Part shown: positions 1 to 4,459 of the stretch, piece by piece
How the letters are laid out: each line of letters begins with the position of its first letter
How positions within the stretch are numbered: the first letter of the stretch is position 1
DNA from: Candidatus Latescibacterota bacterium
Lineage (GTDB): Bacteria; Latescibacterota; UBA2968; GCA-2709665
Direction of reading: 5' to 3'
NCBI GenBank assembly: GCA_965222075.1
Contig: OZ244937.1
Location: 3,840,001 to 3,904,000 of the forward strand
Length of the DNA: 64,000 bases
The notes under the pieces: generated by a model
The model's input: only the letters and a program-made list of their open reading frames with translations
Database searches by the model: none
What the model was told of the DNA's origin: nothing
Program-made: the position numbers and the translations under genes

Positions 1-19
1 CCAGCGGACTGGTGACCTA

Positions 20-247
20 TCCCCCCGGCCCCCTTTCCTGAGAAGAAAGGGGGAGAAAGGCGCAGAAGGCGACGGGGAGTTTGCAGAAAGTGGATCTGGA
101 TAAGGTGAAGATATAAGACAGAATCTTGAAGGTGTTCTAAGTCGACCCATCCGGAGAGAGTATAACTGAAGAAACGCTCTACCTTCCAAACCTCTTAGGA
201 ACACCCTCTCCCCTCCCCGCCTCGGGGAGGGGCCGGGGGAGGGGTCA
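20..247. repeat. Cluster of GC-rich palindromic (REP/MITE-like) sequences
   Basis: Hairpins CCCCCTTTC..GAAAGGGGG (about 29-54) and CCCCTCCCC-GCCTC-GGGGAGGGG (about 210-232), plus imperfect IR GGTGTTCTAAG / CTTAGGAACACC (131-204). Confidence 0.5.
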
Positions 248-428
248 CTACCACGGCTGTTCCGCGTTCCCCGGACGCCGACGGCAATCGCACCGGTGGC
301 CTGCAACCTCTGCTGTCCGCTACAACAACTTTCCCTGTATTCTGTCAAAACAATTGGTTATATTTACTTTGTTACCAATGGCGTTGTATTTATAGGCGGT
401 TTCTGCGGCATAAAGGGAGAGAGTATGG

Positions 429-881
429 ATGTTGAAAAGCGAAACGGATGAGCATCGGGAATCGGTCTGGAGTGTGAACGACAGGGAATGGTTTGCCTAT
501 TTGTCGGTCGCACTATTTGTTCTCGGATTGGTTTTGCGGTATCGGGAAAAGGATGCATTTCAAACGGCATTCGACCTCATAAAAGATGTGGGAACCATTG
601 GCATCTTTGCTGTTACAGGTGCTTTTTTCACACTGGAGGTGATAGACGTTATGTTAGGAATTTATGAGAGGATTAAGAAAACGCAACATGAAATGGGACG
701 CAAGGCAGGACGTCAGGAAGGACGTCAGGAAGGTCAGGAAGGACGTCAGGAAGGACGTCAGGAAGGACGTCAGGAACAAATTGATAAAATCAGGAAACGG
801 ATTGAGGCTGAAAGAGAAAAAGGAAATCTGAAAGACATCGAGTTGAGGAAATTTGAAAAACTTCTGGACGACGATGAGTAA
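429..881 (+). CDS. Hypothetical 2-TM membrane protein with RQEG repeats; internal in-frame start at 651
   Basis: 150 aa ORF, two hydrophobic segments, GRQE repeats, charged helical tail; AT-richer than flanks; GGAGAG upstream. Confidence 0.7.
   Translation: MLKSETDEHRESVWSVNDREWFAYLSVALFVLGLVLRYREKDAFQTAFDLIKDVGTIGIFAVTGAFFTLEVIDVMLGIYERIKKTQHEMGRKAGRQEGRQEGQEGRQEGRQEGRQEQIDKIRKRIEAEREKGNLKDIELRKFEKLLDDDE
708..776 (+). repeat. 12-bp tandem repeat GGACGTCAGGAA x6 (third copy 3 nt shorter)
   Basis: Read directly from sequence; encodes GRQE units. Confidence 0.95.
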
Positions 882-2740: not shown

Positions 2741-4459
2741 TTAGCATACCTGCCGCACCCGCAGGGTCCGAAACCGGTTGATGGCCGCCGCCAGTTCAAA
2801 CCGGCGCGGAAGCGCAAACTGCCCCAGCAGGCGCGGGCTCAAAACATCCAGCCCCTCCCCATCCAAATCCGCCCAGACCCGCTCCAGCACCTCCCGCAAC
2901 GGACGCCTTCCGTCCATATACCGGTTTCGAGCGTAAAGAATCGCGTTCCCGATCGCCTCCGTCTGCCCCCTGTCAACGACCTGCTCAACCGCAGAAAGGT
3001 CGATCGTCTGCTCCCCAAACGCAATCGTATGGGCATCGCGCACCCCAATATTGACCCCCCGGCGGCCCCGGCTGGGATCGATACTATCCGAGATGGGTGC
3101 CCGGGCAGTCACCCGCCCGAACCGCTCGCCTCCCTCTGCCCTCCGTCTTGCCCGATAGCGCTGCGCAATCGCCCCCGCCTCCCGGCTGACGTCCCGGGGG
3201 CAATAGACATCCATCATAATCACCCGGTCGGCTGCATCGAAATAGTCGCCCGACCCCCCGATCACCAGCACCGTAGAAACCCCCAGATCCCGATAGAGCA
3301 GGCGAACCTTATCGATAAACGGCGTGATCGGCTCCTTCTCCTTGGCCACCAGCTCCTGCATCCGGTGATCCCGGATCATAAAATTCGTCGCCGAAGTATC
3401 CTCGTCAATCAGCAACAAATCAGCGCCCGCCTCCAGCGCCTCGATAATATTTGCAGCCTGCGATGTACTCCCGCTGGCGTCCTCCGTAGAAAAGGCGGAC
3501 GTGTCCTTGCCGTGGGGCAGATGGGTAATAAAGGGCCGGATGTCCACCCCCTCAATCCTCCGGCCGTCCTCTGCCCGGATCTTGACCGCATCCGCCACCG
3601 TCACCGCCAGCTCCCGGCCGTCTCCGGGAATGTGGTTGTAGACCCCCACCTCCAGGGCACGCAACAGCGTCGACTTCCCGTGGTAGCCCCCGCCTACGAT
3701 GAGGGTGATCCCCCTGGGAATCCCCATCCCCACCACCTCCCCCCGGCCTGGAAGGTCCACCACCACACGCAGTGAGGGGGGGGAAACAAACGGAACGGCC
3801 GCTTCCGCCCGCATCGGCCTGTCGTCCACCCCGCTGCGCCGGGGCAGCACCGCCCCCTCCGGTACAAAAGCCACCAGCCCCAAATCGTCCAACCTCTTTC
3901 GCAGCGCATCCTGGTCTTCATTCACCTCAAGATGGGCGTATAACCCCGCCCGGTCCAAACGGTCAAAACACAGCGCGCAGGCCACGATCTCGGGCAACTC
4001 CTCAAAAAACATCGCCTCTGCCTGTCGGCCCATCACACGCCTCCCCTGAGCGGGCAGCCCCATCAGCAGCCGCGCCTCCACCCCCTCCTGCGTCACCCCC
4101 ACCGAAGTCCGCTCTAAAATCTCCTGCCCCGGCCCACCAATCGCAATCTGTCCGCTCCGCCCGCTCCCCCGCCGGCCCCGCGTAACCCGCAGGATGGCCT
4201 CGGCAACCCGCCGGGTCAAAAAATCGCAGAGCCCCACCCGCCGGCTTCGAGAGGAAAACGTATCCCCTGGAAAACGGGCCACGCCCTGCAAGACCTCAAC
4301 CCGTATCCGGCTTGGCGGCGCGAACGGATCGGCCTGTACATGGTCGATACGCAAACAATAGCATCCAAAATCGTACTGCCCTGCAATCGCCTTGTACGCC
4401 GGATACCCCCGACCGTCGATCCGGCGCAGATTCCGACGCAGATCCTCCCCGCTCCTCAT
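2741..4459 (-). CDS. ABC-class ATPase domain protein (COG3044 / MRB1590-like)
   Basis: Walker A GGGYHGKST, Walker B LLLIDEDTSATNFM, ASGSTSQAA, N-terminal DHVQADPFAPPS. Confidence 0.9.
   Translation of the reverse strand: MRSGEDLRRNLRRIDGRGYPAYKAIAGQYDFGCYCLRIDHVQADPFAPPSRIRVEVLQGVARFPGDTFSSRSRRVGLCDFLTRRVAEAILRVTRGRRGSGRSGQIAIGGPGQEILERTSVGVTQEGVEARLLMGLPAQGRRVMGRQAEAMFFEELPEIVACALCFDRLDRAGLYAHLEVNEDQDALRKRLDDLGLVAFVPEGAVLPRRSGVDDRPMRAEAAVPFVSPPSLRVVVDLPGRGEVVGMGIPRGITLIVGGGYHGKSTLLRALEVGVYNHIPGDGRELAVTVADAVKIRAEDGRRIEGVDIRPFITHLPHGKDTSAFSTEDASGSTSQAANIIEALEAGADLLLIDEDTSATNFMIRDHRMQELVAKEKEPITPFIDKVRLLYRDLGVSTVLVIGGSGDYFDAADRVIMMDVYCPRDVSREAGAIAQRYRARRRAEGGERFGRVTARAPISDSIDPSRGRRGVNIGVRDAHTIAFGEQTIDLSAVEQVVDRGQTEAIGNAILYARNRYMDGRRPLREVLERVWADLDGEGLDVLSPRLLGQFALPRRFELAAAINRFRTLRVRQVC

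Follow-up and report, generated by a model that had tools for sequence, protein, structure and literature searches.

In the rpn genes, a short protein, RpnS, is produced from an internal start inside the gene of the long protein, RpnL, as described by Zhong et al. (2023, PMC10400941). For RpnA of E. coli the internal start was shown by experiment, and the substitutions K240R+E241D+M244L abolished RpnA-S by removing RpnA's ribosome-binding site (RBS) together with its start. The C-terminal helix shared by the two Rpn products contains four-amino-acid (dodecamer) repeats, with the number dependent on the strain, and a mismatch in repeat number between RpnL and RpnS abolishes the neutralisation, as stated there and in the accompanying commentary; moreover, extra short copies and tandem arrays of rpn occur (PMC10400941). 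In this work we analyse a gene at positions 429–881 of a 64,000-nucleotide (nt) stretch from a Candidatus Latescibacterota bacterium (assembly GCA_965222075.1, contig OZ244937.1, positions 3,840,001 to 3,904,000 of the forward strand), the whole of which is called the window below. The gene encodes a 150-amino-acid (aa) protein with two transmembrane (TM) helices and a charged helical tail, and at the end of the second helix it contains an internal Shine-Dalgarno (SD) site followed by an in-frame ATG. Based on the comparisons given below, the gene probably yields two products, of which the long one is a membrane protein and the short one is soluble. To our knowledge, intragenic antitoxins have been documented so far for one toxin type, the Rpn nucleases.

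At the internal site, GGAGGTGAT (635–643) is followed by the seven bases AGACGTT (644–650) and then by ATG (651–653), which is in frame with ATG 429 and lies 222 nt, that is, 74 codons, from it. The sequence GGAGGTGAT is the exact complement, over 9 nt, of ATCACCTCC in the 3' tail of the 16S rRNA of this genome, GGATCACCTCCTTTCT. The genome does use SD sites, since the 5-mers GGAGG and AGGAG begin between −13 and −10 relative to the first ATG in 182–260 of 5335 long open reading frames (ORFs) per position, as compared with about 20 long ORFs at each background position. The proposed short-form ORF (651–881, coding part 651–878) shares the reading frame of the long form and would encode 76 aa before its stop. 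It is noted, however, that a match of at least 9 nt in the interval from −21 to −4 is also present at 22 of the 29,936 internal in-frame ATGs (0.07%) in the long ORFs of this genome, so that a single 9-nt site could be a chance occurrence in a genome of 5.4 Mb. Conservation in the relatives is therefore the test.

A word-indexed protein search gave only 3 relatives, and the family profile was started from three relatives together with a 31%-identical paralog of the same genome (G000 1147747–1148139). Among the 83 distinct family ORFs of the loci analysed, the aligned internal start codon is ATG in 77, GTG in 2 and TTG in 2, and it is missing in 2; of the four members with GTG or TTG, three are copies disrupted by an insertion, and the M-to-V changes in L065 and L082 are both encoded by GTG. 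The 18 bases 5' of the internal start nearly always contain a purine tract complementary to the 16S tail, with the encoded residues varying from member to member. Thus the tract is GGAGGTGA where the protein reads LEVxDVM, AAGGAGG where it reads FEGGTVM (the paralog of this genome, with 31% identity), AGGAGGTGA in LAGGEAM, AAGGAG in LQGVDLM and ILQGVDM, AGGAGGT in VLGGKDTM, GGAGG in TMEALDM and VVEAKDM, and ACGGAGGT in ITEVVM of the GC-rich Dehalococcoidia copies. The Watson-Crick match to the anti-SD is at least 5 nt long in 46, at least 6 nt in 31 and at least 8 nt in 16 of the 77 ATG members, while the same measure gives 14%, 3.6% and 0.23%, respectively, for the internal in-frame ATGs of this genome, and 28.7% (at least 5 nt) and 13.9% (at least 6 nt) for the first ATGs of the long ORFs.

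Moreover, the complementarity exceeds what the encoded residues require. In a codon resampling, with the amino acids fixed and the codons redrawn from the family's own usage (37 distinct 7-aa contexts, 2000 nulls), the mean longest match is 5.57 nt against 4.03 ± 0.26 nt in the nulls, none of the 2000 being as high, and 26 of the 37 contexts reach at least 5 nt against a null mean of 16.0 (a level attained in 1 of the 2000 nulls). In 97 pairs of close relatives, the synonymous differences per identical-residue codon pair amount to 0.101 in codons −6 to −2, as compared with 0.204 in codons −30 to −7 and 0.152 in codons +1 to +14; since the paralogs and orthologs are kin, the significance is overstated both by these pair counts and by the resampling. 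Because the resampled nulls are exceeded and the synonymous change dips at the site, these sequence comparisons show that selection acts on the DNA itself at the internal SD, beyond the needs of the amino acids. The original prediction, which was made from the letters of the stretch, had described an AT-richer 150-aa ORF with two hydrophobic helices, a perfect SD located 7 nt before an in-frame ATG, and a 76-aa peptide starting there and holding the GRQE repeats and the charged helical tail, and it had proposed, as a check, to see whether the internal SD and ATG are conserved at synonymous positions in homologs. The composition and hydropathy given below, the 9-nt complementarity, the 77 of 83 ATGs and the lowered synonymous change confirm this description, in which the peptide is a putative product read at the sequence level.

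The repeats that follow the internal start vary in number. In the window gene they form a 12-nt tandem repeat of 6.4 copies at 703–776 (Tandem Repeats Finder, 89% matches), which encodes the GRQE units. The window protein, its same-genus ortholog in L009 and the protein P0001 are 150, 143 and 135 aa long, respectively, and differ in the repeats; the members of one ortholog group in genus g6 have 6, 3, 3, 2 and 1 units; tandem paralogs are one or two units apart; and the Dehalococcoidia copies have 2–6 units of 8 aa.

In addition, the part that begins at the internal ATG also exists on its own. Partial copies make up about a quarter of the ORF-level matches. In three species (L016, L044 and L046), an insertion inside helix 2 separates the 2-TM part from a 66-codon ORF that opens at the family's ATG, is preceded by GGGAGGTGA and is intact in all three. 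The ratio of nonsynonymous to synonymous substitution rates (dN/dS) of this ORF between species is 0.09–0.13, indicating purifying selection, and hence a protein starting exactly at the internal ATG is kept by selection. Free-standing C-terminal ORFs are also present in L081, L056, L086, L014 (2306–2521) and, 3' of a full copy, L011. The short C-terminal ORFs located downstream of full copies, in L011, L014 and L016, are a trait of the relatives and not of the window. At the split loci (L016:1901–2458, L044:1468–2037 and L046:1447–2066) the insertion is a few hundred bases long and the 2-TM ORF gains a new tail.

We now compare the gene with Rpn. As in the Rpn L/S pair, an internal in-frame RBS and start stand before the C-terminal part, which is seen at the sequence level in the window gene itself; the RBS is written in codons of the K/E-E-G type; a long helix with 12-nt repeats, variable in number among close relatives, follows just after the start; arrays and free-standing short copies occur, in the relatives and not in the window; and the unit is a single gene with no fixed partner. 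Unlike in Rpn, the N-terminal part (residues 1–78) is a 2-TM hairpin rather than a PD-(D/E)XK nuclease, and the N-terminal half of the window protein has no Pfam or NCBIfam match, the Rpn family model TIGR01784 included. The tail of the window protein is also different, being short (34 aa after the repeats) and with no demonstrable homology to RpnS.

A closer tie to Rpn is present in a sister subfamily that has the 2-TM module. The tails of its members L032, L033 and L041 match the C-termini of Rpn-like proteins of about 300 aa, with 63% identity over 78 aa (E 5e-29) between L032 and the Rpn-like protein P0010. The P0010-type proteins score 33–36 bits against TIGR01784 (cut-off 52.1; E down to 8e-9), have no Pfam match, and align with cyanobacterial plasmid genes annotated as 'Rpn family' or 'DUF4351' at 24–29% identity over 73–99% of their length (E down to 1e-12). 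Judged from these alignments, the sister subfamily bears the C-terminal domain of Rpn-like nucleases on a 2-TM module. The Rpn-like ORFs have AAGGAG(G) or AGGAGG located 5 nt before an in-frame ATG, at (K/Q)EGIM, in 5 of the 5 correctly picked among 10 loci; as K240R+E241D+M244L abolished RpnA-S (PMC10400941), these genes would share the same K-E...M coding trick.

For the window gene itself the tie is looser. The family profile compared with the Rpn-like profile by hhalign gives a probability of 97% when L032 is included and 1.4% (E 0.037) when it is not, and the BLASTP match of the window protein to P0010 is confined to the repeats (E 0.009). Because the link depends on L032 and the BLASTP match covers the repeats only, these comparisons do not identify the tail of the window protein as an Rpn domain; what the gene shares with Rpn is the layout. 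Thus, of the Rpn-like gene-within-a-gene that had been claimed for this locus, the layout holds, with a conserved internal SD and start and variable 4-aa repeats in two phyla, whereas the claim that the window gene has the same C-terminal module as Rpn is not supported. Our literature search, outside subscription journals and the supplements of Zhong et al., turned up no publication on an Rpn-type layout with a membrane domain. Judged from the sequences compared, a membrane domain with an Rpn-style gene-within-gene layout is probably a new combination, the layout itself being known from Rpn.

It is also noted that four genomes of genus g6 (G027, G030, G039 and G089; L129–L138) contain a divergent Rpn-like expansion, with 11–34 matches per genome, in which many free-standing C-terminal fragments are present and AAGGAGG-N5-ATG is conserved inside the full-length genes; no such Rpn-like genes are present in the genome of the window gene. 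An assignment of the L032-type tail to DUF4351 was set aside; it is unconfirmed by Pfam, and DUF4351 is named only in the annotation of the cyanobacterial P0010 homologs.

The features of the window gene, all on the forward (+) strand, are as follows. A purine-rich SD-like tract, AAAGGGAGAGAG (413–424, read from the sequence), stands 5' of the primary start and also precedes the start of the ortholog in L009. The long-form ORF (429–881, 150 aa plus stop, from the ORF list and the family profile) contains the N-terminal family motif RESVWSV (aa 10–16, 456–476, from the alignment of members), hydrophobic helix 1 (aa 22–39, 492–545) and hydrophobic helix 2 (aa 54–78, 588–662), the latter closing with LEVIDVM, whose codons contain the internal SD and start. 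The Kyte-Doolittle hydropathy in 19-aa windows exceeds 1.4 at residues 20–39 and 50–79. In the AlphaFold2 model, which was built from a 34-row alignment and has a mean predicted local distance difference test score (pLDDT) of 71 and a predicted template modelling score (pTM) of 0.34, a helix spans residues 19–39 and an unbroken helix spans residues 47–131, running from TM2 through the repeats into the tail. The model consists essentially of long helices, and Foldseek gave no match to it in the PDB at E ≤ 0.001. The charged tail QIDKIRKRIEAEREKGNLKDIELRKFEKLLDDDE (777–878), predicted to be helical by AlphaFold2 and without a family match, contains 20 K+R and 19 D+E. The G+C content (GC) of the gene is 0.446 and that at third codon positions (GC3) is 0.43, as compared with 0.626 and 0.726 for the next gene and a genome GC of 0.593. 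Since dN/dS against the same-genus ortholog in L009 is 0.20 for the N-terminal part and 0.19 for the C-terminal part, the ORF is, from its pattern of substitution, a real gene.

Other computations on the gene gave the following. The predicted complex of the long form with the short form scores 0.27 against a mark of 0.32 and is used for neither side. The scan for promoters and terminators gave one promoter-like site over the internal start, which is no more than shuffles give. In two metatranscriptome runs, the contigs cover the FGE-sulfatase and NYN genes that lie nearby and, within 429–881, just a 42-nt piece of the repeat; since these data are contigs, the coverage of 429–881 indicates neither expression nor silence. 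The DNA contigs of two other runs end at the repeat (733/747), where the repeat number of other strains is unreadable.

The family is widespread among the relatives. With the family profile, 33 of 41 related genomes are positive, with 1–13 matches per genome, some in tandem, and phylum-wide 39 of 168 genomes, from 5 of 49 genera, contain the family. When 1.84 billion representatives were searched with a profile restricted to the 2-TM part, 116 clusters matched at E ≤ 0.001, of which 44 are at E ≤ 1e-10, and all the proteins in the 116 clusters are 61–224 aa long; the relatives are recorded as Candidatus Latescibacterota, some as Gemmatimonadota. Further copies, with 28–32% identity, multicopy and tandem, occur in metagenome-assembled genomes of Dehalococcoidia, and it is consistent with them that the closest clusters in the ESM Atlas, labelled 'hypothetical protein', have Chloroflexota as the commonest phylum, which is a lead only. 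The members have in common the N-terminal motif R-E-S-(V/I)-W-S-V, the two helices, a Met ending helix 2, repeats of the G-x-x-E-G type and variable tails. Among 29–34 aligned members, W14 is invariant and R10, S15 and R19 are kept in at least 90%; the tails of many members finish in W..W..KG..F..PPPF/PPPS. There are up to 13 copies per genome, with tandem arrays (tandem copies occur in L012, L014, L016 and L147) and many truncated or frameshifted copies.

The family is unannotated. For the window protein, there is no curated Pfam, NCBIfam, PADLOC or PHROG model at threshold, the PHROG scan giving no match above noise. The best Pfam result on 34 members is Yae1_N, in 6 members and under its cut-off, and on nine C-terminal peptides no Pfam domain, DUF4351 included, is over its cut-off. 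PDB sequence searches with the L032 tail and with the profile of the C-terminal peptide gave nothing meaningful and no match to RpnA-S, and Rfam on L001 gave chance microRNA matches only. Note also some unusual members: the 255-aa protein of L125 continues beyond the 2-TM module and internal Met into an additional long C-terminal domain, and in L079, L080 and L087 the C-terminal module is tandem-duplicated in one ORF, where the short form would be of 87 aa with two REKGREEGRKEVL...PPPYSP units.

Besides Rpn, three known systems bear on the comparison. Class II phage holin/antiholin pairs arise from dual starts, which are separated by a few codons at the N-terminus, so that each of the two products is a membrane protein. 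Like a class II holin, the window protein is small and has two membrane helices and a charged tail that, from the modelled topology, would be cytoplasmic, and, as in the holin/antiholin pairs, two products of one frame are proposed, with one restraining the other. Unlike in the holins, the second start of the window gene lies after TM2, so that the product would be soluble, and the family is multicopy in the chromosome; among the 150 neighbouring ORFs of 52 loci there is no lysis gene or endolysin. The second system is FliH/YscL, where a glycine-repeat (GxxxG) helix is present, which in FliH mediates dimerisation. The window protein has the same G-x-x-x periodicity on a soluble helix, and the repeat region matches the FliH repeat segment of NCBIfam below threshold, with the best E of 7.3e-8 (L013) at 32 bits against a cut-off of 180. 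However, the other regions of FliH are unmatched, the 32 bits are to be compared with cut-offs of 148–293, and there is no flagellar context; judged by these scores, the match is a resemblance of low-complexity helices and not membership. The third system is Cas11d, which is produced from within cas10d and is named as an internally initiated small subunit by Zhong et al. (2023, PMC10400941). As proposed for the window gene, the C-terminal part of a larger protein is there separately translated and works with the long form; the proteins are, however, unrelated to those analysed here, and Cas11d has no tuning by repeat number.

The genomic context of the family is heterogeneous. Among the same 150 ORFs, housekeeping genes (GlnRS, FGE-sulfatase, ABC ATPases and epimerases) stand beside genes of the mobile or defence type (Uma2, five times, Gp49/HigB, TnpB, an integrase, an M78 peptidase and a restriction enzyme). 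At the 52 loci no partner gene is conserved family-wide, and this absence fits a self-contained unit. The subfamilies are syntenic across species.

In the window, an FGE-sulfatase gene lies directly 3' (874–1893). With ATG 874 as its start, it would share 8 nt with the end of the 2-TM gene, stop codon included, and the two genes would be translationally coupled; the true start of the FGE-sulfatase gene is uncertain because the FGE domain begins about 60 residues after ATG 874. The pairing of the 2-TM and FGE genes is also present in the same-genus ortholog locus L009, and the family members in L034 and L041 have FGE genes in their vicinity. Further downstream, on the minus strand, are a NYN-domain protein (1970–2596, E 2e-7), which is covered by metatranscriptome contigs, and an ABC_ATPase/MRB1590-type P-loop protein (2741–4459, E 1e-126). 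Window positions 1–265 belong to an array of repeated non-coding units that extends upstream (G000 3838408–3840265; also at about 3759–3774 kb and 3830 kb) and consists of pieces, some about 54 nt and others about 100 nt long, that carry G+C-rich hairpins, with 9–27 copies per segment in the genome, a raised depth in metagenome contigs and no Rfam match. Elsewhere in this genome, the AT-rich paralog at G000 1147747–1148139 lies beside a gene for a HigA-type 'addiction module antidote' helix-turn-helix protein (L002:2143–2508, PF21716, E 3e-14). In four loci of genus g2 that belong to one subfamily (L011, L029, L046 and L056), a gene of the Uma2 family (putative restriction endonuclease) is near the 2-TM gene, and in L011 the Uma2 gene, the 2-TM gene and a short C-terminal ORF stand in this order on one strand and may be a three-gene cassette.

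Based on the analogy with Rpn, the following mechanism can be proposed. The long form (150 aa), translated from ATG 429, would make a membrane helical hairpin with both ends cytoplasmic, TM2 being prolonged as a long cytoplasmic helix that bears the Gly-x-x-x repeats (GRQE). The short form (76 aa), translated from ATG 651 with its RBS in the last turn of TM2 (codons L-E-V-I), would be the soluble tail alone. By analogy with Rpn L/S, the repeat helix may be a self-association surface, where the short form would pair with the identical helix of the long form and block the assembly of an active membrane-perturbing oligomer. The number of repeat units would decide which short form fits which long form and thus insulate the many paralogs from each other, and once the short form is lost or titrated away, the long form would be released, in the manner of toxin-antitoxin or abortive-infection units. 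This full reading, in which the gene is a self-neutralising toxin with a built-in antitoxin acting as a toxin-antitoxin or defence module, is tentative, with a chance that we put somewhat short of even.

Several points weigh against the two products or against the toxin-antitoxin role, besides the kinship of the compared sequences and the low profile probability without L032 that are given above. The anti-SD match is 4 nt or less in 31 of the 77 ATG members and is absent in 6 of them. The null of the codon resampling is already high, with 16 of 37 contexts at 5 nt, because E-G and E-V residues force GAGG. In the window, the GGAGG core begins at −16, 11 nt from the ATG, where the spacing is suboptimal (55 ORFs have the core at −16 and 260 have it at −11), and the 7-nt spacer is reached only through the extended pairing (GGTGAT). 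This genome has no TIGR01784 match, and the PADLOC scan of 6 members gave no meaningful match in any of the six. With neighbours that are mostly housekeeping genes and subfamilies that are syntenic across species, the genes seem to be of greater stability than is typical of mobile defence genes. Moreover, in the split copies the 2-TM halves have no shared helix and yet have dN/dS of 0.13–0.21, and since the 2-TM half is thus conserved without that helix, neutralisation simply by a shared helix cannot hold in these copies.

The explanation that survives best beside the self-neutralising toxin is that two products are made and neither is a toxin or an antitoxin: the long form would be a membrane anchor or scaffold, and the short isoform would tune its oligomer state or compete for a cytoplasmic partner, in a housekeeping or regulatory role, with the W..W..KG..F..PPPF/PPPS tail of many members as a possible partner contact. 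All the evidence for the internal start applies to it equally. It is also consistent with the occurrence of subfamilies beside GlnRS, a UvrD-type helicase, the FGE-sulfatase and a GDYXXLXY protein in several species, with the purifying selection on both halves of the split copies, with the resemblance of the proline-rich tail motif to a binding peptide, and with the lack of a match to the PADLOC defence library. Against it stand the numbers of up to 13 copies per genome, the tandem arrays and the many broken copies, the AT-rich gene in a GC-rich genome, the fast change in repeat number, and the exchange of the tail with Rpn-like nucleases, all of which are characteristic of selfish or defence genes and not of a housekeeping scaffold. 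We regard this non-toxic role as rather unlikely, with an appreciable chance nevertheless.

Less probable still is that there is a single product, with the Met and the E-G or E-V residues at the end of TM2 kept for structure. An SD-like tract can be a programmed ribosome pause site that aids membrane insertion, and the tract would be such a site or a by-product of the residues. This would explain the 5-nt matches that arise from the amino acids alone in the 16 contexts, the 31 members with weak matches, the long spacing of the GGAGG core in the window, and the invariance of E70 in the first five members aligned. If this explanation were true, however, it would not be expected that the complementarity is above that of 2000 of 2000 codon-resampled nulls and the synonymous change is halved at the site, nor that the tract outlasts the replacement of E by Q, A or L. 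Besides, a pause site needs no start codon 5–11 nt downstream, whereas almost every member retains an ATG or GTG there, and purifying selection acts on the free-standing ORFs that open at the internal ATG. The motif is also used by the Rpn-like genes of related genomes, and the start in E. coli RpnA is shown by experiment (PMC10400941). A single product is thus improbable. Finally, that the ORF is not a gene but arose by chance in an AT-rich spacer or is what remains of a decayed gene, to which its atypical composition, the lack of a curated family match and the mere 3 word-indexed matches could point, has a very small chance and is rejected on the comparative data, namely the occurrence of the family in 39 of the 168 genomes from this phylum, the 116 clusters, the Dehalococcoidia copies, the dN/dS of 0.19–0.20 against the ortholog and the conserved N-terminal motif and two helices.

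The window gene illustrates clearly how a ribosome-binding site constrains the amino acids with which a membrane helix ends, and the self-neutralising role proposed for it can be directly tested in E. coli, since the protein is small (150 aa). In an extension of this proposal that we consider doubtful, the internal start and repeat helix would be a portable self-antitoxin cassette carried on unrelated killing domains, namely the PD-(D/E)XK nuclease of Rpn and the 2-TM hairpin of the present family, and by analogy the 2-TM family would be a new set of membrane-acting abortive-infection or addiction toxins that contain their own antitoxin, with paralogs insulated by repeat number and exchanged between Latescibacterota and Dehalococcoidia. 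If it is true that the layout controls a membrane protein, genes-within-genes would be a general modular route to self-restrained toxins, and further families would be findable by a search for in-frame SD and start sites that are conserved and have 4-aa repeats of variable number behind them.

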